Source: an uncultured Gammaproteobacteria bacterium (lineage in GTDB: Bacteria > Patescibacteriota > Microgenomatia > UBA10105 > UBA927). Taken from it: a stretch of DNA of 64,000 nt. A model generated the notes under the pieces. The model had not been told where the DNA came from. It saw only the letters and a program-made list of their open reading frames with translations, and did no database searches. Position 1 is the stretch's first letter. Each line of letters begins with the position of its first letter. Shown one piece after another: positions 1 to 56,393 of the stretch. A program made the position numbers and the translations under genes. The stretch lies in contig CAZKLT010000002.1 of NCBI GenBank assembly GCA_964553825.1, positions 2,068-66,067 on the forward strand. The letters are read 5' to 3'.

Positions 1-868
1 CCAGAAGGGCATCTGCCAGGCTGTTGCGCCCTGCCTCTGTGATGATTTCTTCCTCCGTGAATCGCCCGGTAATAGCCCGGCCCTGATTTCGCAGGTCGGT
101 GGCAATCACCGATTGAATCATCTGCGCTGGTGAACCGAAATCGCACAGCGCCTTCGCATTCGCCTGCGTGAGGTCATACTGGAATTCCACGTCCACATCG
201 TACGCCATCTTCACACCCGTGCCGCTGAGAATGGCATTAGTGATACTGGTCTCACACGCCGCAGACTGGCACGCAGGGTCCCCGGGATTAGGATTGGATT
301 CCAATACCGCGCGGTCAAGCGTGCGGTACCGTTGGGTTCCCGTGGGATACAGACGTGTCATATCCATCGGGAGCGCGTATACGCCGGGCTTGAGCAGGCG
401 GAATTCCTGATGGGCTTCATCGTAATTGCAATACAGACCCATGTAACCGCCTGGCACATTGGCGGCAACGTGCCCCTGTCCATCGGGACCCATATCCACG
501 AATTTCTGTGGAATGGTGCGATAGAGTCCCGGACCCAGAATTTCGTAGTCCGTCGAGCCATCGGCATTGTATTTCTTGACGAAAATGCCGATGCGGCCCG
601 CGGGGATGTTTGCCGCCGCCATCACCTCGATGGTGAAATTCTTGGTCTCATCCGCGTCATCGGCTTTCCACTGGGCAATGCTGTCACCCGCATATTTGTA
701 TTGCGAGTATTGTTGGGTGACGTCCATTGCCGCGGCGTCGTAGTTGGGATTCACGACACCGACGATTTGTCCGTTCGGAACGAAGTCCGGCGGCGCTTGA
801 GCACCGCATGACGTGACGAAAATCAACATCAGTAGAGCACCGAACACTTGCCAATTTCTTGTTTTCAT
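1..868 (-). CDS. SPFH/band-7-like lipoprotein, N-terminal part (gene continues beyond window start)
   Basis: ATG at 868-866 preceded by a GAGGT RBS. Signal peptide with lipobox (LIFVTSC). The reading frame stays open to position 1. Segment IQSVIATDLRNQGRAITGRFTEEEIITEAGRNSLADAL resembles the SPFH/band-7 core. This ORF is not in the supplied track because it runs off the window edge. Confidence 0.5.
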   Translation of the reverse strand, partial: MKTRNWQVFGALLMLIFVTSCGAQAPPDFVPNGQIVGVVNPNYDAAAMDVTQQYSQYKYAGDSIAQWKADDADETKNFTIEVMAAANIPAGRIGIFVKKYNADGSTDYEILGPGLYRTIPQKFVDMGPDGQGHVAANVPGGYMGLYCNYDEAHQEFRLLKPGVYALPMDMTRLYPTGTQRYRTLDRAVLESNPNPGDPACQSAACETSITNAILSGTGVKMAYDVDVEFQYDLTQANAKALCDFGSPAQMIQSVIATDLRNQGRAITGRFTEEEIITEAGRNSLADALL

Positions 869-1068
869 ACTATTTACCTCATCTTGGATTTCTTGTGTCA
901 CTGTTTCGGCTGACCGGGCCTACGTGTGGTGTGACGGTGGGTTGGGTTTTGTTGGTCTGGTATTTTCCTTTTCTCTTTTGGTTTTGAACTATTGGACTGC
1001 TGACAGGGCCAGAAAAAATAGCATTCTGTTCCTGTTTCGCAGCCCAAAACAACCGCCAACATTCCTTT

Positions 1069-1388
1069 CTCTTGAACTTGTTAACGTGCATCAGGAATGC
1101 ACGAACACACTCCCCGAGTATGGGAAGCGGTCATGCTCTCTTGATTCCTTTTTGTCTTTCTGCAAATTCGTCCTTTCGGACTCATCAGTACGGACACACA
1201 TCCGTAGTTTGCAGAGGAAAGGATACGGGTGGCTCAGGTGACGTCGGGTTCAATCGACATACATATACACTGAACGACCAGCATCCTCAGGGCCATACTG
1301 GCACCTGCATCGCCTGTCTCACGACGGCAATGTCCCCCGGAGGACCTTACGTGCATCCTCGAACTATTCACGTTCAAGAGTAGTTCCA
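1069..1388. repeat. 320-bp direct repeat, copy 1 (MITE-like or structured 3-prime-UTR element). Termini form a 9-bp inverted repeat: ctcttgaac ... gttcaagag.
   Basis: Base-for-base identical to 2853-3172, which I checked line by line. It begins 15 nt after the stop of the TPM gene on the minus strand. The terminal inverted repeats extend imperfectly to about 35 bp (ctcttgaac..ggaatgcacg / cgtgcatcc..gttcaagag). Confidence 0.9.
1158..1216 (-). ncRNA. hammerhead-ribozyme-like motif (type III topology), copy 1
   Basis: Minus-strand RNA: UCUGCAAA-C-UACGGA(UGUGUG)UCCGUA-CUGAUGA-GUCC(GAAA)GGAC-GAA-UUUGCAGA. All conserved core nucleotides CUGAUGA and GAA are present. Stem I is 6 bp, stem II is 4 bp with a GAAA tetraloop, and stem III is 8 bp. 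C17 sits at position 1207. Non-canonical: the 15.1-16.1 pair is U-A instead of A-U. Confidence 0.4.
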
Positions 1389-1402
1389 TAAAGCACAGGG
1401 GC

Positions 1403-2695
1403 TTATTTACGCGCGCGTTTGAAGAGGTTCACCGCTGGACGATCTTCGATTTTCGCGTCACGCAATTCGGCTAGCTGTGCCTTGAGGGTTTTGATGTCGG
1501 TGAGGATACCCGCTTCGGGACCGATATCATCGGCTTTGGTATACCGTAGTGTCACGGTCAGCGGTTTTCCTTCGAGCAGGCGGGATTGGGCTTGCAGATC
1601 GCGGACATCAGGATCCGTATCAGCCTCCGCCTGGGTGAAGCCCATCATCGGGTCGAGGAGTTCAGCAATTTCTGCCTCGGTCATTTCCAGCACGTTCTTG
1701 CTCGTGCCAATGAGTTTGAGGTAGATGACTTCCCACTGCTCTACTTTTTCCCGATAGGACAACGTGCGCACGCCTTCCTTCTCGTTGTCGAGGAGCATCT
1801 TCCTGTTGCCCATCACGAGTTCGATTTTGCGCATGGTTCTGCGGATCGCTTCGACAGCCGCCGTTTCGATGTCCGAATATTCCTGAAGACCGTTGGCCTT
1901 CATACGGCTGTAAAGGAGCGTTCCCTCAGGTTCGTCGCCGGCTAAGACCAAATTTGCCTGGCGGACGATTTCCCCGGTGCGGTCAGTGAGCACCTTGAGG
2001 TAGTTGAGTTCAGCGATGACTGGGACTCCGAATCGCAGGAACAGCCAACCTAAACCCACAAGGATTGCCAGCACGGCAAACCCGGCGAAGAAATTCCGTA
2101 CAGGCTTCATGTCCACGGGTGGACGCGGCGTTGCCGTAGGCTGGGATGTCGGCATGGCGAATTGCTGATTTGCGTTCGGATACGCCACGCGATATGCCTC
2201 GGCGAGCGCGATGACAATGCTCTCAGTAGCCTCATTGCTTGCCACGCCGTCGAGCACTAACTGCTTCACCGTCTCATCGGCAAGATGAATCGGCGTTGCT
2301 GAACCGAGCGTGCCGCCAACATCAAGCGTAACGGTCATTTCTCCGTCCACGATACCCACCGAGAGGAAGTAGCCGCTTTGGTGCAGCTCCATCTGCTCAA
2401 CGTTATCAATGGTCTGCGGAAACCGTGCCTGAGAGGCAATTTGCACCGCATCAATCCGGGCGTACCATTCATCCTCTGAGCTATATCGCTCATCGGATAG
2501 AAACAGGCCAACCTTGACCCCTTTGAGCGCAAGCGGCTTCATAGCCTCACACACTTGCTGCACATTGAGGGAATTGGTCTCATCCACGATGATGCCGTTA
2601 TCGCAACTGGCTTGCGCGTGAGCATTCGTGGGGACGACAGACGCTGTGATGACGAACATCAATACAAGCGTCAACAAACGACGAATAGCGTTCAT
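1403..2695 (-). CDS. membrane protein with an extracytoplasmic TPM-like (phosphatase-fold) domain, one TM helix and a cytoplasmic coiled domain
   Basis: 430 aa. AGGAGA RBS 8 nt upstream of the ATG at 2695. Signal peptide. Segment IIVDETNSLN...KVGLFLSDE...GYFLSVGIVDGEMTVTLDVGGTL fits the TPM pattern. TM helix FFAGFAVLAILVGLGWLFL. Confidence 0.5.
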   Translation of the reverse strand: MNAIRRLLTLVLMFVITASVVPTNAHAQASCDNGIIVDETNSLNVQQVCEAMKPLALKGVKVGLFLSDERYSSEDEWYARIDAVQIASQARFPQTIDNVEQMELHQSGYFLSVGIVDGEMTVTLDVGGTLGSATPIHLADETVKQLVLDGVASNEATESIVIALAEAYRVAYPNANQQFAMPTSQPTATPRPPVDMKPVRNFFAGFAVLAILVGLGWLFLRFGVPVIAELNYLKVLTDRTGEIVRQANLVLAGDEPEGTLLYSRMKANGLQEYSDIETAAVEAIRRTMRKIELVMGNRKMLLDNEKEGVRTLSYREKVEQWEVIYLKLIGTSKNVLEMTEAEIAELLDPMMGFTQAEADTDPDVRDLQAQSRLLEGKPLTVTLRYTKADDIGPEAGILTDIKTLKAQLAELRDAKIEDRPAVNLFKRARK

Positions 2696-2852
2696 GGGGA
2701 TTCATCTCCTGGGTAGTATTTTGGATAATTCCAGCGGTGGTCTCGGCATACCGAGTTTGCTCATCCCTCTTCTGACAAAATGGGACGATACGAAGATACA
2801 CAAGAAATGCTCTATCTTCATATCGTCCCACATCATCAGTCAATTATTTCTA

Positions 2853-3172
2853 CTCTTGAACTTGTTAACGTGCATCAGGAATGCACGAACACACTCCCCG
2901 AGTATGGGAAGCGGTCATGCTCTCTTGATTCCTTTTTGTCTTTCTGCAAATTCGTCCTTTCGGACTCATCAGTACGGACACACATCCGTAGTTTGCAGAG
3001 GAAAGGATACGGGTGGCTCAGGTGACGTCGGGTTCAATCGACATACATATACACTGAACGACCAGCATCCTCAGGGCCATACTGGCACCTGCATCGCCTG
3101 TCTCACGACGGCAATGTCCCCCGGAGGACCTTACGTGCATCCTCGAACTATTCACGTTCAAGAGTAGTTCCA
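2853..3172. repeat. 320-bp direct repeat, copy 2
   Basis: Identical to 1069-1388 with an offset of 1784 bp. It begins 15 nt after the pspA stop codon on the minus strand. It occupies the pspA-to-TPM intergenic region. Confidence 0.9.
2942..3000 (-). ncRNA. hammerhead-ribozyme-like motif, copy 2
   Basis: Identical sequence to copy 1 (offset 1784). The putative cleavage site C17 is at 2991. Confidence 0.4.
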
Positions 3173-3187
3173 ATGCAAATCTGCCTG

Positions 3188-3874
3188 CTATGCGCCCTTC
3201 TTGAGGGAGGCTTTCAGGGCGATGATATCGGCGCGCGCCTTTGCCACGGCATCGGTATTTCCCATGGCGTCGGAGATGGAGCCGACCACGCGCTTGTGGC
3301 GCTGATGTGCACGGCGATTCTTTTCCAGAATCTTCCCGCCGTAATCATCGAGCCCCTTGGTCTTACCAACCACTGCCTGAGCACCTTCCATGGCATCGGT
3401 GGACGCTTCGACCGCCTTGGTATCTTCCTTGGCTTCTTCGAGTTCCTTCACGCGCGCCACACCCTGCTCATACAGCATGGTGAGGAATTTGATGCATTCA
3501 TCATTGTCCGCGAACTCCGCTTCCTTGGCGGCGAGTCTCTCTTCGCGTTTCTTGATTTCTTCATCAAGTGCGTTGAATTGAACGCGGAGGAGCTCCGCAT
3601 CCTTGTCGTTGTTCTCGTCGTCGTCCAGCAGGAGAGCCTTCACATCACGGTCGAGCGCCGTTCTCTGCGGGCGGGCGGTCTTGAGGTATTTCCTCAGGTC
3701 GCCGATTGCAACGGTCACCGCATCCTGCACATTGTACATGCGCTCGCGCGCGCGATACAGGTCACGGACGCGCTGTTTGAGGACGGGGATGTCGAAAATT
3801 TCCATTAGAGCATCCATGCCCTCATTGAGGATGCCGAGCGAGAGCAGACGTGCCTTTTGGGCTGTTGTATCCAT
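3188..3874 (-). CDS. pspA: PspA/IM30 (Vipp1/LiaH) family membrane-stress protein
   Basis: 228 aa. Long charged coiled-coil. N-terminal MDALMEIFDIPVLKQRVRDLYRARERM and overall charge periodicity are typical of PspA. Confidence 0.6.
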   Translation of the reverse strand: MDTTAQKARLLSLGILNEGMDALMEIFDIPVLKQRVRDLYRARERMYNVQDAVTVAIGDLRKYLKTARPQRTALDRDVKALLLDDDENNDKDAELLRVQFNALDEEIKKREERLAAKEAEFADNDECIKFLTMLYEQGVARVKELEEAKEDTKAVEASTDAMEGAQAVVGKTKGLDDYGGKILEKNRRAHQRHKRVVGSISDAMGNTDAVAKARADIIALKASLKKGA

Positions 3875-4140
3875 ACGATTTTCTCACTTTCTACTAGTTG
3901 AATTGAAATTTTTTCGTGCTTTCGAACAAACTACGTACCTTGCCTTATTGGAACGGTTCACCTCCTGTGGTGTGAAAAAATGAAATTTTGAGACGCACAA
4001 ACGTAAGAGAAGAGCTCTCCTACCTCGCGTGCGTCCCAAACGCATGGAACCATACACTACTCTTGAGTTTTAAAGAGCGATGCTTCCAACGGAGTGAAAA
4101 TTATAGGGCGCAAATGCCCCGCACCTTCATACAGCGGAAA

Positions 4141-4190
4141 CTGGAGGATTGTAGCATTTTTTTAGGGAACAGTCAAAAACTATGGGGTAT
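4141..4190 (-). promoter_or_regulatory. sigma70-like promoter for pspA: TTGACT, 17-nt spacer, TACAAT, with a shared upstream motif TAATACCCCATAG
   Basis: The minus strand reads TTAATACCCCATAGTTTTTGACT gttccctaaaaaaatgc TACAAT. The leader to the pspA ATG is about 260 nt. Confidence 0.5.
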
Positions 4191-4198
4191 TAAAACGG

Positions 4199-4245
4199 TA
4201 CCAGACGGCGTAGCACGAAAACATAACATGTGACTACGCCATCTG
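4199..4245 (-). terminator. putative intrinsic terminator after the 4298-5089 gene
   Basis: 13-bp stem (ccagacggcgtag / ctacgccatctgg, one mismatch) with a 20-nt loop. On the minus strand it is followed by taccgtttta. Confidence 0.35.
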
Positions 4246-4297
4246 GATTTGGCGGATAATCTGCAGGATACCGTTTTTATTGGAGGGCGGGAGCGCA

Positions 4298-5089
4298 TCA
4301 CTCCATGTTGAATTCATTCTCCACGAACACCTCGTCCCAGAAATCCATGATGCCATCATTGACTTTCCAGGCGATGAATCCATACACGATGAGTACCAGA
4401 ATGGCGAGGAGAAAAATTCCCAGTTGCGCGAGAATCTTCACCCAATCACCGTCTCCCGAGGAGGAACTGGAGCGCGAACTGCGCCGGGTTGTGGACGATG
4501 TCCTGTTGCTTGACACGGGCATGGGAACGGGCATCGCCATCACGTTACTGGAGCGGGAACTTGCCTTGGCTTTGGATGATGAGCGGGTCGATGCGCGGTC
4601 CGACAACGACGGTTTTTGACCCGTCTGGAACGGATTCCAGCCCTGACCGTTGATGTTAATCAGGGTCGTGTTGGTCGGCCGCCTTGACCGCTCCTGAAAC
4701 TCATCCCAATGTTCATAATCCGGCCGGGCGCTCCCAAACTTGCGCTTGCTGTAGGTAACGAAAATCCCCCACACCACAATGGCTGACGCCACGTTGAAGC
4801 CGGGAACCCAGACCATCCACCAGCGGTAGGGACCAATAAATGCGTCTGCCATGTCGCGCATGCCGGGCAGAAATGCATCCAGCCCCAGAAGCGTTCCGAG
4901 TGTCAGGATCACCAGCGCTACCACCGTGTTGACATACTTGGTGGCTTGAACAAGGTAGTACATCACGGACGATCCGCCTTCGTCCTTGATGACTTCCGAC
5001 TCGGTCTGCACGGGGCCGTGCAGACTGTCGCTCAGCAGAATCAGTACGATTGCGCCGAGCACGGGGAAAAGATAACCATATTCCATTGT
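4298..5089 (-). CDS. hypothetical membrane protein with a Ser/Arg-rich low-complexity linker
   Basis: ATG (MEYGYLF) with an AGGAG RBS 8 nt upstream. Several TM segments. The long upstream extension in the ORF track lacks an RBS. Confidence 0.6.
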   Translation of the reverse strand, partial: TMEYGYLFPVLGAIVLILLSDSLHGPVQTESEVIKDEGGSSVMYYLVQATKYVNTVVALVILTLGTLLGLDAFLPGMRDMADAFIGPYRWWMVWVPGFNVASAIVVWGIFVTYSKRKFGSARPDYEHWDEFQERSRRPTNTTLININGQGWNPFQTGQKPSLSDRASTRSSSKAKASSRSSNVMAMPVPMPVSSNRTSSTTRRSSRSSSSSGDGDWVKILAQLGIFLLAILVLIVYGFIAWKVNDGIMDFWDEVFVENEFNME

Positions 5090-5254: not shown

Positions 5255-5300
5255 CAAAAGAAGTCCCGGAATTATACTTTAAATGAGGCTGAGAGTCAAA
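5255..5300 (-). promoter_or_regulatory. sigma70-like promoter: TTGACT, 17-nt spacer, TATAAT, with the same upstream motif as the pspA promoter
   Basis: The minus strand reads ATAATACCCCATAGTTTTGACT ctcagcctcatttaaag TATAAT. It drives the 4298-5089 gene. Confidence 0.5.
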
Positions 5301-5319
5301 ACTATGGGGTATTATCCCG

Positions 5320-17603: not shown

Positions 17604-18356
17604 ATGAAACATGTCTCAATTAGCTTAATCATCTGCGCATTTTTCCTAATATTCGCTGCACAAAAGCATCCGGCGTTCGCAGAAACCTGCTCCCCGCCTC
17701 AAGCCGGAAATCTTGAACTAACTGCCGATTGTTCATTTGCAGGCATTGTCAACGGCGTGGATTCGGGCACCGGTGATACAAACGATGCAATTCTTACCAT
17801 CAGTGCGGGCATTTTAACCATCATGCCAGGACAGACGATCGCCTTCGGTTCGCTTATCCTCAACGGCGGCGCTATCGCTATTCCAGCAAACAGTTCACTT
17901 CTCTTGCCGGGTGCTTCGCTCTGGATGACCGATTCGGATGCTGATGGATTCCCCGAAAGCACCGATCAAATTGCCGCCACAGAGAATCCGGGCCTCGGGA
18001 CTAGGCGCAGAGCAGGACTCAACGATATAAACACCGCAGATTGCTATGATGGAAATCCGGATGTCTTTGTGGGTCAAACGCTGTTTTTTTCCGTCGACCG
18101 CGGCGACGGGAGTTTTGACTACGACTGTGATGGCGACATCATCAAGCAGCGGGATATCTGCTCCTGTGGGTGCACCAATCTATGCCTTGCTATTCCGGAA
18201 TGTGTCGCCACCGATGTCACGGCAGAGGCAACGGATTGCGGAGCTACCGGAATAAATGCTGGACCCGTAGACTGCACGCGGTCAGACGATATCTACGGGA
18301 ATTGTGTTGCCTGTACAGGCTCGGGGACCACGGAAACCACTATGACATGCCGTTAA
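17604..18356 (+). CDS. secreted Cys-rich hypothetical protein
   Basis: Signal peptide. C-terminal region with 14 Cys (CSCGCTNLC..CVACTG). Its start is 2 nt after the upstream stop. Confidence 0.5.
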   Translation: MKHVSISLIICAFFLIFAAQKHPAFAETCSPPQAGNLELTADCSFAGIVNGVDSGTGDTNDAILTISAGILTIMPGQTIAFGSLILNGGAIAIPANSSLLLPGASLWMTDSDADGFPESTDQIAATENPGLGTRRRAGLNDINTADCYDGNPDVFVGQTLFFSVDRGDGSFDYDCDGDIIKQRDICSCGCTNLCLAIPECVATDVTAEATDCGATGINAGPVDCTRSDDIYGNCVACTGSGTTETTMTCR

Positions 18357-48451: not shown

Positions 48452-48587
48452 AGGCGGGTGAGGCAGGCTTTGAACCTGCGTTCTTGGTTTTGGAGACCAA
48501 GGTCCTTCCAACTGAACGACTCACCCAAAAGGAAGAGAAGGATACGATGCAGTGTGAACCTGACGGCTCAAGTGATTCTCTCTTCCA

Positions 48588-48666
48588 TGGAGGCGGCGAG
48601 GTAGGACTTGAACCTACTCCCTCCGGCTTTGGGTACCGGCGCTCATCCTAATGAGCCATCTCGCCC
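48588..48666 (-). tRNA. tRNA-like gene, probable anticodon CCA (Trp), with irregular acceptor/T-stem register and C33
   Basis: Minus strand: GGCGAGA-UG-GCUC(AUUAGGAU)GAGC-G-CCGGU(ACCCAAA)GCCGG-AGGGA-GUAGG(UUCAAGU)CCUAC-CUCGCCGCCUCCA. Clear D, anticodon and T arms. The acceptor pairing is off by one. Confidence 0.5.
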
Positions 48667-50671: not shown

Positions 50672-50744
50672 TGGTTGCGGGGCCGGGAATCGCACCCGGT
50701 CTAGAAGATTATGAGCCTTCTGTGCGGCTTTACACTACCCCGCG
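50672..50744 (-). tRNA. tRNA with anticodon CAU and a C1-A72 mismatch (initiator-like), non-canonical D and T loops
   Basis: CGCGGGG-UA-GUGU(AAAGCC)GCAC-A-GAAGG(CUCAUAA)UCUUC-UAGA-CCGGG(UGCGAUU)CCCGG-CCCCGCA-A-CCA. 73 nt, CCA encoded. The D loop lacks GG. The T loop has UGCG instead of UUCG. Confidence 0.55.
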
Positions 50745-50847
50745 GTTCATAAAGAACGAATTTCATTATAGCGTGTTTGGCGCTCAAATCAAAGCTGCCC
50801 TTTGCTCTTCCTTCCAACTGGACTATACTTACTCAAGAACTTCTTGT

Positions 50848-52545
50848 ATGAAAAAGTACTGGCACCTTGTCATATTGGGCATTATCTTTTGTGTTGCCCT
50901 GTTTCTCCGACTTTGGCACCTTCCTCAAATTCCCGTCGGGCTCCATGGTGATGAAGCAAGTATCGGCTACAACGCATACTCACTGTTAAAAACCGGCCGT
51001 GATCAAAACGGTATCCGGTACCCTCTTGCTATTGACCAATTCGGCGACTTTCGACCTGCGGGATACCACTATCTTGATATTCCATTCGTAAAACTCTTCG
51101 GACTCAACGCGCTTGCGGTTCGACTTCCGTCTGCGATTCTTGGTGCCGCGTCTGTGGTGCTTTTTTACTTTCTCACCTCCGCGATCTTCGGCAAAAAACC
51201 GGTCGGTCTGATTGCGGCTTTTTTTCTGACCATTTCCCCGTGGCACATAAACATTTCCCGGGCCACCAGTGAGGGGGTTATCGCAGGCTTCTTCATTCTT
51301 TTGGGAATCCTTTTGGTGTTTCATGCACTGACCCGGCCAGGTCGAACGTCTCACCTGCTTATCGGAGGCTTCCTCTCGCTGTTTGTCAGCATCCTGTTCT
51401 ACCACAGTGCGCGTCTGTTCGTGCCTGTTTTTCTCATACCGTTTCTCGGAATCATGTTCCTGGCTTACAAACCGCCGGTGAAACGAAGCATCGGGGCCGT
51501 CATGCTTCTCGTTCTCTTCATCGCCGCACTCGCCGGAGTTATGAAGTCAAGCCAGGGAGCAGCGCGACCCAGCACGGTGAGCATCTTCAATATCCCGGGT
51601 GGTGATCGCGAAATTTTCCAGCAAATCGGTGAAGATGGAACACGGCCTGCCACCATAACACGAATACTGCATAACAAAGCACTCTTTTACGGCAGGTTAT
51701 TTCTTGCGTCGTATTTCTGGCATTTCAACGGTGAATTTCTTTTTAATTCAACGGGCATGCCCATACGATATAAGATCCCATGGAGCGCCAATATGTACCT
51801 CACAGACCTCCCGCTTTTGCTTCTGGGCGCTGCTGCACTTCTTCTGGACGGATTACGGAAACGGAAATACCTGCTCCTCATCCCGCTGGCGTGGCTGACG
51901 ATTGGCGCCCTTCCTGCGGGGCTGACATGGGAAGATCTCCCCAATGTGCAACGGGCTAGTCTTATGATTCCGGCGCTCCTGATGATTTCAGCGTATGGAC
52001 TGTTTGAGCTCCTTGCCGTATTTACCCAGAAAACGCTTCAGAAGCTGATCCTGCTGGGATATGGCGCATTTCTTACCTACGGATTTATTCTTTTTTACCA
52101 CAATTACTTCTACCATCTCCCCCGTCATGAACCGTGGCACAGAAGCGCCGCCGTGCCGCAACTACTCTCCCGGATAGCAGACCTTAAGAAAACGCACGGT
52201 AATGCTCCCGTTATCATGACCACCGAAAGCAACAATAACTTCATCTTCTACCTTTTCTATACGGCATTTGACCCGGCCACATTCCAGGCGATGGGATCAC
52301 CCACAGAGAAAGATAATATGCTTTTTGACGGCATCCAATACACGGTCAGACCATGTCCATTGGGAAACAATTCAGAAGCACCGGATGAAGAAGAAGACAA
52401 TATAGGCATCCTTTTCGTCAATAAAGCAACCTGCAAAACTCCGGTTAATGTTGATGTGTTGGAGACGATACGGTGGACCGATGGTGTCCCCGCCTTTCTT
52501 ATTGTGAAGGTAAACCCCCTGTGGGTAGCGCCGAAGACAAAATAA
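50848..52545 (+). CDS. GT39/GT83-like (ArnT/PMT family) membrane glycosyltransferase
   Basis: ATG 50848 (MKKYWHLVIL). More than 10 TM helices. Conserved HGDEA motif. The upstream part of the supplied ORF overlaps the tRNA and looks spurious. Confidence 0.65.
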   Translation: MKKYWHLVILGIIFCVALFLRLWHLPQIPVGLHGDEASIGYNAYSLLKTGRDQNGIRYPLAIDQFGDFRPAGYHYLDIPFVKLFGLNALAVRLPSAILGAASVVLFYFLTSAIFGKKPVGLIAAFFLTISPWHINISRATSEGVIAGFFILLGILLVFHALTRPGRTSHLLIGGFLSLFVSILFYHSARLFVPVFLIPFLGIMFLAYKPPVKRSIGAVMLLVLFIAALAGVMKSSQGAARPSTVSIFNIPGGDREIFQQIGEDGTRPATITRILHNKALFYGRLFLASYFWHFNGEFLFNSTGMPIRYKIPWSANMYLTDLPLLLLGAAALLLDGLRKRKYLLLIPLAWLTIGALPAGLTWEDLPNVQRASLMIPALLMISAYGLFELLAVFTQKTLQKLILLGYGAFLTYGFILFYHNYFYHLPRHEPWHRSAAVPQLLSRIADLKKTHGNAPVIMTTESNNNFIFYLFYTAFDPATFQAMGSPTEKDNMLFDGIQYTVRPCPLGNNSEAPDEEEDNIGILFVNKATCKTPVNVDVLETIRWTDGVPAFLIVKVNPLWVAPKTK

Positions 52546-52550
52546 GTGGG

Positions 52551-52623
52551 TGCCAGCGGCAGGGATCGAACCTGCGACCTATGCCTTATGAAGACACCGC
52601 TACTACCACTGAGCTACGCTGGC
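52551..52623 (-). tRNA. tRNA-Met (CAU), elongator-type
   Basis: GCCAGCG-UA-GCUC(AGUGGUAG)UAGC-G-GUGUC(UUCAUAA)GGCAU-AGGUC-GCAGG(UUCGAUC)CCUGC-CGCUGGC-A. Perfect 7-bp acceptor stem. G1-C72. Confidence 0.85.
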
Positions 52624-53990: not shown

Positions 53991-54161
53991 CGCGTTTGCA
54001 ATAATAGGTGAAAAGCGACTGAGTTTGGCCAGTCACCAAACGAGCTATCTGCCGAACCGCAGTAAGCAGATCGGGTAAGCCCGTAACAGCACTCGAGAAG
54101 CAAATAAGGTGGTACCACGAACACCCGTTCGTCCTTATAATGAAGGAGAGCGGGATTTTTT

Positions 54162-56393
54162 ATGGAAAAAAACTACGATCCAAAGCAGGTAGAAGACCGC
54201 ATTTACGCCATGTGGCAACAGGGCGGCTATTTTGTGCCCACCGATAATCCGAAGGCAAAGCCCTTCACTATTATCATGCCTCCTCCCAACGCCAACGACC
54301 CGCTCCACATTGGTCATGCCATGTTTGTCGCCTTAGAAGACATTATGATCCGCTACCGGCGAATGGCAGGCTTCGCCAGCCTCTGGGTTCCGGGAACGGA
54401 CCACGCAGGTATAGAAACCCAGTTCGTGTTTGAAAAAAAGCTGAAAAAAGACGGAAAAAGCCGGTTTGATTTTGACCGGGAAACATTATTCGCCAATATC
54501 TGGCAGTACGTAAAACAAAACTCAGATATGGCCGTTTCACAACTGAAACGGATTGGGGCATCTGCCGATTGGAGCCGCTTTAAATTCACCCTTGATCCGG
54601 ATATCGTCGACGTCGTGTTAACCACATTTCGCAAACTGCATGAAGACGGACTTCTCTATCGGGACAACCGCCTCGTTAACTACTGCACCCGCTGCGGCAC
54701 GGGATACTCAGAGCTTGAGGCGAACCACGAGGTGAAAAGGGATCCATTTGTCACCATAAAATACGGCGACTTTACCATAGGCACGGTGCGCCCGGAAACC
54801 AAATTCCGGGATACCGCCCTTGCCGTAAACCCTAAGGACAAACGGTATAAAAAATTTATCGGCCAAAGCTTTGACATAATGGGACTCTTGGGGCCTATAA
54901 AGATGACGGTGATAGCAGATCCCGAGGTGGATCCGGCATTCGGCACCGGCATGATGAAAGTAACGCCCGCCCATGATTTTCATGATTTCGAGCTGGGTAA
55001 AAAACATAATCTTCCCGTCACTCCCATTATCGATCTCAAAGGAAAAATGGACTTTTCCTGGTATATACAGAGTCCTGACTTTGCAACCAAACCGCAAAAA
55101 TACCAGGATCGCGCAAAAACGTATCATGGCTTGCATGTGTCAAAAGCCCGGCCGCTTATGATAGACCATCTCAAAGCAGACGGATTGCTTGTGGATATCA
55201 ACGAAAATTACGAACACACGGTGGCCACCTGCTATCGCTGCGGCTCCACCCTTGAGCCGCTTCCACTCCCCCAGTTTTATATCAAGGTTGAAGCGCTGAC
55301 AAAACCGGTACTTCAAGCGCTCAAAACCAAAAAGGTGAAGATTCTCGGTCCCGGATACGACAAGATACTCAAAAACTGGCTTACCAACCTCAAAGACTGG
55401 AACATCAGCCGCCAGATCGTCTGGGGGATACGGATTCCCGTGTGGTATTCCCTGGAAGAAAACCCCAACCTGCAAATACGGTATGTGGACTCGCAGGGAC
55501 AGCAGATCGTGAGAAACGGGAACGATATTCTTGCGTCTGGTGATCTTGAGGAGGCAAAAAAGGGTCTTCAACAGCTGCAGGCGCCCATCGGCTCAACGTT
55601 TGTCATAAGCACTACTGCCCCTGGTCCCAACTATCTCCAGGAAACGGATACGTTTGACACCTGGTTTTCTTCAGCCCAATGGCCATTTGCCACGCTTAAA
55701 ACCGCAAAAAAGGGAGACTTTGACCGCTTCTACCCTACGCAGGTTATGGAGACGGCGTACGACATTCTTATCTTTTGGGTCATGCGCATGCTAATGATGG
55801 GTATATATGTCACGGGTAAACCGCCATTTGATACCGTCTACCTTCATGGCCTCGTGCGGGATGATAAGGGGCAAAAAATGAGCAAATCGAAGGGTAACGT
55901 TATTAACCCGATAGAAATAATTGACAAATATGGGGCAGATGCGCTGCGTATGGCGCTCGTTATGAGCACCACCGCAGGCCGTGATTCAAATACCAGCGAA
56001 GAAAAAATCCGCGGCATGCGTAACTTCACCAACAAAATCTGGAACGCCGCGCGGTTTATCCGCCTCAAGGAAAATCAAAATGCAAAAATAGGCGAGCTGG
56101 ACGAACCGTTTATCAAACACCTCCATGCCACATCAAAAACTATCACCAAGTATTTAACCGCCCAAAAAATCGGCCTTGCAGCCGAGTGTGTATATCAGGA
56201 ATTTTGGCATTGGTTTTGCGATGAAGCCATCGAACAAAACAAGGAAGGTAAAATCTCCGATGCGGCGCTCAACGAAGGATTCATAACGTTTTTAAAGCTC
56301 CTTCATCCATTTGTGCCATTTATCACTGAGGAAGTTTGGAGATCGATACATCCCGACAGGACGCCGCTAGTTGTCAGCCCATGGCCGTCATGA
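54162..56393 (+). CDS. valS: valine--tRNA ligase (compact form lacking the C-terminal coiled-coil)
   Basis: PPPNANDPLHIGHA and KMSKS motifs. 743 aa. Confidence 0.75.
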   Translation: MEKNYDPKQVEDRIYAMWQQGGYFVPTDNPKAKPFTIIMPPPNANDPLHIGHAMFVALEDIMIRYRRMAGFASLWVPGTDHAGIETQFVFEKKLKKDGKSRFDFDRETLFANIWQYVKQNSDMAVSQLKRIGASADWSRFKFTLDPDIVDVVLTTFRKLHEDGLLYRDNRLVNYCTRCGTGYSELEANHEVKRDPFVTIKYGDFTIGTVRPETKFRDTALAVNPKDKRYKKFIGQSFDIMGLLGPIKMTVIADPEVDPAFGTGMMKVTPAHDFHDFELGKKHNLPVTPIIDLKGKMDFSWYIQSPDFATKPQKYQDRAKTYHGLHVSKARPLMIDHLKADGLLVDINENYEHTVATCYRCGSTLEPLPLPQFYIKVEALTKPVLQALKTKKVKILGPGYDKILKNWLTNLKDWNISRQIVWGIRIPVWYSLEENPNLQIRYVDSQGQQIVRNGNDILASGDLEEAKKGLQQLQAPIGSTFVISTTAPGPNYLQETDTFDTWFSSAQWPFATLKTAKKGDFDRFYPTQVMETAYDILIFWVMRMLMMGIYVTGKPPFDTVYLHGLVRDDKGQKMSKSKGNVINPIEIIDKYGADALRMALVMSTTAGRDSNTSEEKIRGMRNFTNKIWNAARFIRLKENQNAKIGELDEPFIKHLHATSKTITKYLTAQKIGLAAECVYQEFWHWFCDEAIEQNKEGKISDAALNEGFITFLKLLHPFVPFITEEVWRSIHPDRTPLVVSPWPS

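Follow-up and report, generated by a model that had tools for sequence, protein, structure and literature searches.

A candidate ribozyme-based RNA processing module in the intercistronic gaps of a PspA-like/SPFH operon

In a 64,000-nucleotide (nt) stretch of bacterial DNA (contig CAZKLT010000002.1 of assembly GCA_964553825.1, positions 2,068 to 66,067; the whole stretch is hereafter the window), two identical 320-nt direct repeats lie in the two gaps of a three-gene operon for a PspA-like protein, a 430-aa predicted membrane protein and an SPFH protein, and the coding strand of each repeat carries a type III hammerhead ribozyme motif. From the conservation and covariation of this motif and its surroundings, we propose that the repeat is probably a ribozyme-based intercistronic processing module. 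The first-pass annotation of this DNA had offered two readings of the repeat, a recently active mobile element or a dedicated structured intercistronic RNA module. Conservation and covariation bear out the second, which was right yet incomplete, as the core of the module is a coding-strand type III hammerhead.

The repeats, at positions 1069-1388 and 2853-3172 (both minus-strand sense), match at 320/320 bases, as first annotated, and the edges of both copies are sharp, with flank identity ceasing at once on either side. The open reading frame (ORF) map likewise upholds their placement in gaps between three co-directional minus-strand ORFs. Read in sense, the upstream copy (2853..3172) starts 15 nt after the stop codon of the 228-aa PspA-like gene and the downstream copy (1069..1388), between the 430-aa gene and the SPFH gene, starts 14 nt after that of the 430-aa gene; the 15 nt originally given for both is exact for the first. 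The GC content of the element (50.9%) is balanced relative to that of the window (49.6%), as had been stated, and none of its 14-mers recurs elsewhere within the 64 kb. The 9-nt inverted repeat described as terminal, ctcttgaac/gttcaagag, is real, but only one arm (1069-1077) forms the very end of the repeat, the other (1372-1380) lying 8 nt inside the opposite end. In agreement with the first inspection, there is no target-site duplication at either copy, where the sense flanks (..GCAU-element-UAGA.. and ..UUUA-element-AAAG..) differ immediately. Two other identities of the repeat were rejected. A coding role, represented by a 103-aa plus-strand ORF, conflicts with stops in every frame in one or both lineages compared and with inter-lineage indels that are not multiples of three; an integron attC site conflicts with the length, with ends that by eye are unlike RYYYAAC/GTTRRRY cores and with the lack of an integrase among the ORFs scanned.

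An E-value scan of positions 800-4300 and of the whole window with Rfam identified a hammerhead (RF00008, 42.7 bits, E=3e-7) on the coding strand of each copy and detected no other Rfam family in the repeat and no hammerhead in the 64-kb window beyond these two. The motif occupies 2998..2944 of the minus strand in the upstream copy and 1214..1160 of the minus strand in the downstream copy. Its core nucleotides, C3-U4-G5-A6-U7-G8-A9 (CUGAUGA) and G12-A13-A14 (GAA), are intact and invariant in all lineages, and G10.1-C11.1 and U1.1-A2.1 form pairs. Stem I (UACGGAU/GUCCGUA, 7 bp) and stem II (GUCC/GGAC, 4 bp) are capped by the loops GUGU and GAAA, respectively, and stem III (CUGCAAA/UUUGCAG, 7 bp) is open, as in type III. 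Scission is computed to follow C17, at ...CUGCAAAC^UACGG, that is, 3′ of C2991 (between 2991 and 2990) in the upstream copy and 3′ of C1207 (between 1207 and 1206) in the downstream copy.

Relatives of the operon are few: none was found among 185,579 representative GTDB species genomes, look-ups of the window proteins by exact sequence returned no contig, and a search of 5.8 billion clusters yielded only about three close relatives for each operon protein. In two metagenome-assembled genomes, L002 (GCA_964478215.1) and L029 (GCA_964349125.1), two copies occupy the same two sites and are again identical to each other, over 317/317 and 316/316 positions, respectively. Orthologues of the upstream copy also stand in L001, a Joint Genome Institute (JGI) strain, and in L008, in which the module follows the PspA-like gene and the contig then ends. 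Short-read contigs of other samples break within the module, as a collapsed repeat would be expected to do. Between the window and L002, identity amounts to 76% in coding sequences, 72–75% in spacers outside the module, 74% in the 5′ domain of the module and 80% in its 3′ part (the module being about 80% identical between lineages), whereas the hammerhead is identical at 55/55 positions, an outcome with a chance of about 3e-7 at 76% background identity by simple arithmetic. In the other lineages, the hammerhead differs only by loop substitutions and by a compensatory flip in L008 from U15.1-A16.1 to A15.1-U16.1. Position H17 is C in the window, L002 and L029 and U in L008, and is thus not G, as the ribozyme requires; the predicted scission point in L008 follows ...CUGCAAUU.

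The first-pass proposal of a recently active miniature inverted-repeat transposable element (MITE) with target preference did not survive this comparison. A MITE-like non-autonomous element inserted twice, or a retrozyme-like retroelement with repeats resembling long terminal repeats, would account for the sharp boundaries, the 9-nt inverted repeat and the perfect identity of the copies, and the retrozyme version also for the presence of a hammerhead in each of the direct repeats of about 320 bp. Yet the same two sites are occupied in three lineages (window, L002 and L029) that are about 24% diverged, with flanking nucleotide identity of about 76%; there is no target-site duplication; and no dispersed copies were found, with only two in 64 kb, although the whole metagenome-assembled genomes could not be searched. 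The inverted repeat is an ambiguous sign of a MITE, being perfect over 9 nt but with one arm 8 nt inside the end and with sequences that behave as RNA boxes also found outside the repeat (see below). Pattern scans of the 185,579 GTDB species genomes and of IMG/VR were empty, and those of JGI contigs gave one unrelated hammerhead. The interior of the repeat pair is an ordinary conserved protein gene, and a Pfam scan of 27 window ORFs revealed no transposase, reverse transcriptase, integrase or phage-like gene. A retrozyme is further contradicted by the coding interior (the 430-aa gene) and by the absence of a tRNA-complementary site beside the repeat. We consider a mobile-element origin all but excluded. 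A separate search of IMG/VR with the 16-mer GGARCTACTCTTGAAC returned 13 matches, all without a ribozyme or box, which look like chance matches and were set aside.

The sense-strand RNA of the repeat has a predicted folding energy of -124.7 kcal/mol (z = -5.6 against shuffled controls, compared with z = -2.9 for the opposite strand), in line with the strong structure first predicted for it. Enforcing the hammerhead on the window module gives -124.5 against the minimum free energy (MFE) of -124.7 kcal/mol, and in L002 the MFE structure already includes the complete hammerhead; by these predictions the ribozyme-active fold is isoenergetic with the MFE and costs nothing. Upstream of the ribozyme lies a 174-nt 5′ accessory domain (2999..3172 in the upstream and 1215..1388 in the downstream copy, minus strand), in which predicted folds and, for P1, P2, P3, P5 and P9, compensatory changes indicate two hairpins (P1 and P2) and a junction with the closing helix GGGGG/CCUCU, from which the arms P3, P4 and P5-P9 extend. 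Downstream of it, the alignment delimits a 3′ part on the minus strand. In the upstream copy (2853..2943) this consists of an A-rich linker, the hairpin P8 (with compensatory pairs, n=2), the conserved sequence UGAUGCACGUUAAC and a terminal box, GUUCAAGAG; in the downstream copy (1069..1159) linker and P8 lead to the same box at 1077..1069.

Covariation was counted with a hand-written structure of 78 pairs on a five-lineage alignment, comprising P1 and P2, the junction GGRGG/CCUCU with P3, P4 and the long-arm tip P9, the three hammerhead stems, P8, and a long-range helix that joins the start of the P1 loop (CUCUUGAAC) to the last nine bases of the module (GUUCAAGAG). Standard pairs fill 96.3% of the cells, compared with 34–45% when the 3′ partners are slid by 1–3 columns, and ten pairs have changed on both sides, compared with 0–3 in the slid controls; 0/500 shuffles reach the observed pairing and covariation values. 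Hammerhead stems I, II and III are 100% paired across the alignment. Given the few lineages, we regard the covariation as supportive of the proposed fold rather than conclusive.

The long-range helix is part of a wider pattern, a box/anti-box system around each cistron to which the supposed terminal inverted repeat belongs. Every cistron stands between a box and an anti-box with 9–13 nt of complementarity. The leader boxes are GUUCAAGAGUAG of the 430-aa cistron (2861..2850, minus strand), which is GUUCAAGAG extended by sequence whose last 3 nt are outside the repeat, and UCAAGAGUAGU (4066..4056, minus strand), an orphan box that is the best-conserved block of the 5′ untranslated region (UTR) of the PspA-like gene. 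Both are perfectly complementary over 11–13 nt to ACUACUCUUGAAC after the next stop codon. In the upstream copy, this anti-box (3156..3168, minus strand) runs from the 3′ half of the 5′ arm of P1 into the first part of the P1 loop, and is complementary over 11 nt to the 5′-UTR box and over 9–12 nt to the module's own 3′ box; in the downstream copy (1372..1384, minus strand), 12 nt of it are perfectly complementary to the leader box 2861..2850. The orphan box in the first 5′ UTR occurs in five lineages. Its complementarity to the anti-box remains 11–12 nt in the window, L002, L008 and L029, whereas the duplex register slides by a base or two between lineages, which argues that pairing, and not a word bound by a protein, is under selection. 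Downstream of the last gene, which no ribozyme follows, three lineages have an orphan anti-box 5–9 nt beyond the stop codon, namely CUCUUGAAC in L029 (box GUUCAAGAG) and CUCUCGAAC in L009 (box GUUCGAGAG) among them. The pair itself covaries, being GUUCAAGAG/CUCUUGAAC in L029 and GUUCGAGAG/CUCUCGAAC in L002 and L009, a compensatory change.

Further records extend the comparison. In L007, an unrelated AT-rich metagenome contig, a type III hammerhead stands at 302-356 of the minus strand, just past a glycosyltransferase stop codon and preceded by two hairpins. It has the same core, loops and U15.1-A16.1/AAC combination as the window, and its stems I and III are wholly different yet complementary, which by sequence places this core variant outside the operon family as well. 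The same scheme is kept in L033, a distant groundwater lineage with an SPFH protein 33% identical and a different gene order. It has a leader box with a long hairpin, the PspA-like gene has an anti-box behind it, a hammerhead-like motif, canonical in its core, and a further box are present, and another anti-box follows the last gene. Rfam has no match to this motif at E<=1 because stem I holds a large insertion of about 40 nt. The regions concerned are L033 5798-6427 and 7920-8400, and after the last gene a partial copy of the 5′ domain, without ribozyme, accompanies the anti-box. In L034/L035, with a still more distant PspA, the gene ends in an intrinsic terminator and no ribozyme is present.

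Gene conversion between direct repeats 1.8 kb apart would best, and most simply, account for two copies without a single difference. The upstream copy of L001 (9553-9847) is a puzzling case: from the cleavage site on it matches its partner perfectly, whereas its 5′ domain shares just 63–71% identity with any other version known. Its breakpoint, at the invariant ribozyme, may simply mark the sole stretch with enough homology for crossover. Perfect direct repeats at this distance are good recombination substrates, and their concerted evolution shows that recombination occurs. The repeats might act at the level of DNA, as a switch of gene copy number by which RecA would delete the 430-aa gene or amplify it in tandem. 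Such a function would leave the strand-specific RNA covariation, the invariant ribozyme and the orphan boxes unexplained, and the 430-aa gene is kept in all lineages seen; we judge it very unlikely and recombination more likely to be a side effect.

In the processing model, one promoter (4176..4148) would drive the PspA-like gene, the 430-aa membrane protein gene and the SPFH gene in this order, with a module in each gap. The ribozymes would cut 3′ of C2991 and C1207, and three RNAs of one gene each would arise from the tricistronic transcript. The upstream product of each cut would end in a 2′,3′-cyclic phosphate behind a 182-nt multi-helix domain, an end that should resist 3′ exonucleases, so that the 5′ domains would become the 3′ ends of the PspA-like mRNA (2999..3172) and of the 430-aa mRNA (1215..1388). 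Each downstream product would open with a 5′-OH and the folded ribozyme (138 nt of module past the cut), the leader continuing, after the ribozyme, with the A-rich linker, P8, the 9–12-nt box, a long hairpin and the ribosome-binding site. Effects of these ends on mRNA stability and translation would be expected. Pairing of box and anti-box would close the module so that the ribozyme folds free of the flanking mRNA; alternatively, it would tie the 5′ and 3′ ends of a processed mRNA into a panhandle, and possibly both would happen in sequence. The orphan boxes at the ends of the operon favour at least some pairing of the cistron-bridging kind. With the U15.1-A16.1 core, cleavage would be predicted to be slow and incomplete, and its extent would set how much RNA is full-length relative to processed.

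Several observations weigh against this model. First, 42.7 bits is below the Rfam gathering threshold of 48.5 bits. Next, the pair beside the cut site is U15.1-A16.1 (triplet AAC) in the window, L002, L029 and L007, in place of the canonical A15.1-U16.1 that is held by L008 and L033; it loses the A15.1-G5 contact, and in vitro the rate falls at least 10-fold in mutants of these positions (PMC3088659). Statistics on covariation are thin, with five or six lineages to draw on and a shuffle control that ignores relatedness. In L001, the upstream copy has a 24-nt deletion by which part of stem III is gone (30.8 bits), and this copy may not cleave. Last, the internal anti-box of L033 can pair equally well with the upstream or the downstream box, which favours neither module-closing nor cistron-bridging pairing. 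The score and the core variant are weak objections. Accepted hammerheads of the same subfamily, defined by loop I AUGUGUR and stem II GUCC-RAAA-GGAC and represented by phage contigs and virusoid-sized records, score 40–44.7 bits, also below 48.5, and since these include canonical members, the threshold is not discriminating for the subfamily. A natural U15.1-A16.1 hammerhead self-cleaves, less efficiently than usual (Perreault et al. 2011, PMC3088659), and the pair is a known rare core variant, not an exclusion from the hammerhead class.

Alternatively, the ribozyme could be dead or vestigial and the module a structured RNA without self-cleavage, such as a protein-binding platform, an entry or block site for an RNase, an attenuator together with the downstream hairpin, or the source of a small RNA. 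The non-canonical pair would be expected to cleave poorly, damage to stem III is tolerated in the L001 strain, hammerhead catalysis requires neither P8 nor the large conserved 5′ domain, and a terminator-like hairpin comes after the upstream copy. A vestigial ribozyme, however, is difficult to reconcile with 55/55 invariant positions between lineages that are 20–26% different elsewhere, with the retention of all catalytic-core nucleotides and a 15.1-16.1 pair that covaries and does not decay, with the activity of the natural U15.1-A16.1 hammerhead (PMC3088659) and with the canonical core at the equivalent site of the distant L033. We regard loss of cleavage as unlikely, though not negligible in probability, and retain self-processing as the preferred explanation.

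Self-processing could also go a step further. The two cuts would free a 1,784-nt unit with the 430-aa ORF, whose ends might be joined into a circular mRNA; or else the outer fragments might be joined and the middle cistron spliced out. The 3′ trailer and the 5′ leader would rebuild one full module through stem III and the box helix with the ends in ligation geometry, and the 2′,3′-cyclic phosphate and 5′-OH would be joined by the hammerhead reverse reaction or by an RtcB-type ligase. The need for halves of different copies to fit would then drive the perfect identity of the copies, and the L001 chimera would be a trace of exchange at the RNA level. A predicted trailer–leader cofold re-forms stems I–III and the box helix with 22 intermolecular pairs, and the copies are identical in three lineages, so that halves from different copies fit. 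The possibility has been raised for clustered bacterial hammerheads (PMC3088659), and plant retrozymes do exactly this (PMC4918200). On the other hand, Perreault et al. sought circular or spliced products in other systems and found none (PMC3088659), the orphan boxes at the operon ends imply that the pairing system needs no two ribozymes, L033 has a single ribozyme, and there is no ligase among the 27 window ORFs scanned against Pfam. We think this extension quite improbable. If true, it would provide a natural circular protein-coding bacterial mRNA or, with outer-fragment joining, a ribozyme-mediated ‘cistron skipping’.

The operon itself has a single promoter-like site upstream of its three genes, a sigma-70-like TTGACT-17-TACAAT with an extended -10 TG (4176..4148, minus strand) that is conserved in L002, L008 and L029; none was found in the two module gaps. 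The first cistron (3874..3188, minus strand) encodes the 228-aa protein, for which support for the name PspA is indirect. There is no direct Pfam, NCBIfam or PDB sequence match, but distant full-length homologues reached by profile search carry PF04012 above threshold, and the best fold matches of a structure model (predicted local distance difference test score, pLDDT, 69) are Vipp1/PspA, with weak E-values near 0.01; we call it a divergent PspA/IM30-like protein. The second cistron (2695..1403, minus strand), bracketed by the two modules, encodes the 430-aa protein with a predicted signal peptide and one transmembrane helix. No search lent support to the TPM name originally given to it: no recognisable family appeared in any search, BLAST against the TPM-domain neighbour of a distant PspA found nothing, and the structure model (pLDDT 47) is too poor for a fold search. 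The third cistron (868..<1, minus strand) runs off the window after the N-terminal 289 of its 393 codons; the full-length protein, P0007, matches PF01145, which justifies the SPFH/Band 7 name.

In the leader of the 430-aa cistron, a long conserved hairpin (2772..2839, minus strand), predicted by folding and followed by AUUUUGU, retains its stem through the changes in L003 and L004; it may be an attenuator or a stabiliser. Another hairpin, GC-rich and with a U-run (4105-4125, minus strand), is located some 20 nt past the predicted start of operon transcription, is kept in L002 and L008, and could be a 5′-end stabiliser or attenuator. Near-identical blocks, AATACCCCATAGTTTT(T)GACT, stand at 4171-4195 and 5290-5315 of the minus strand, in each case adjoining and taking in the -35 hexamer, the first in the promoter of the PspA-like operon and the second in that of an upstream gene for a 312-aa membrane protein. 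They are kept in L001, L002 and L029 and may represent a common operator or a promoter duplication, which would imply co-regulation. In L029 (14890-18965) and L009 (1924-2822), a tRNA gene and, beyond it, a 23S rRNA gene come after the operon; in L029 the 23S gene bears a group I intron (17976-18245) and precedes a 5S rRNA gene.

The rest of the window is ordinary chromosomal DNA, with genes for FtsH, aminoacyl-tRNA synthetases, a copper ATPase, Nramp, glutamate dehydrogenase and thioredoxin reductase. A sub-threshold match to the T-box leader (54009-54139, plus strand; 48.2 bits against a gathering score of 93 bits, E=1.7e-7) stands directly upstream of a class I aminoacyl-tRNA synthetase gene (54162-56393). 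The minus strand also has two tRNA-Trp(CCA) genes 66 nt apart (48453-48666) and two tRNA-Met(CAT) genes about 1.8 kb apart (50672-52623).

Hammerheads that flank genes are already known; what is new here is the conserved chromosomal context, the accessory domains, the concerted evolution of the copies and the boxes that bracket each cistron. Lineages that share as little as about 33% protein identity have kept a hammerhead together with this operon, and the 3′-end domain, the structured leader and the boxes lead to testable predictions on why a cell would cut its own operon RNA. The system is a clean case of concerted evolution of an RNA module, a candidate for circular or end-paired bacterial mRNAs and, if the processing model is true, a natural counterpart of the ribozyme insulators of synthetic biology. 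In those of the RiboJ type, a hammerhead upstream of a cistron removes the upstream RNA and leaves a defined, structured 5′ end, giving context-independent expression. RiboJ is engineered, whereas the module described here would be natural and evolutionarily maintained, and would also build the 3′ end of the upstream message.

Most known bacterial hammerheads lie in prophages, where gene content varies. Hundreds have been described, with a role given only as ‘suggested mRNA processing’ (PMC6765202). The module has features of MITEs and REP-type (repetitive extragenic palindromic) repeats, being short and intergenic with an inverted repeat at or near its ends and strong predicted structure; unlike these, it is not dispersed, has no target-site duplication, is orthologously fixed and strand-specific, and contains a ribozyme with RNA covariation. 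In loop I (AUGUGUR), stem II (GUCC-RAAA-GGAC) and core, the motif resembles phage and virusoid type III hammerheads (L023, L026-L028 and the 366- and 377-nt records L024 and L025). The last two we take, from their sizes only, to be sobemovirus satellite RNAs. The phage examples show the same logic in minimal form, a stop codon being followed by a stable hairpin, the ribozyme and the ribosome-binding site of the next gene; the phage and virusoid hammerheads differ in having the canonical GUC and A15.1, a single short hairpin instead of the 174-nt domain, and no boxes. The repeat arrangement has a parallel in the retrozymes of plants and animals (PMC4918200, PMC7229834), which have two direct repeats of about 300–400 bp, each with a hammerhead, and RNA ends between the cuts that can be ligated into a circle; unlike the operon, they encode no protein, occur in many dispersed copies and rely on the reverse transcriptases of retrotransposons, and their features include 4-bp target-site duplications, a primer-binding site and a polypurine tract. 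The gene arrangement resembles that of the prophage hammerhead clusters, in which several coding-strand hammerheads in intergenic gaps bracket one gene (Perreault et al. 2011, PMC3088659). These hammerheads flank single genes and cleave in vitro, and have been proposed to convert a polycistronic RNA into single-gene mRNAs (PMC3088659). Compared with those clusters, the system described here stands in a chromosomal housekeeping region, its ribozyme forms part of a conserved module of 320 nt that shows covariation, each genome keeps its copies identical, boxes bracket every cistron, and the association with the PspA-like/SPFH operon persists down to 33% protein identity.

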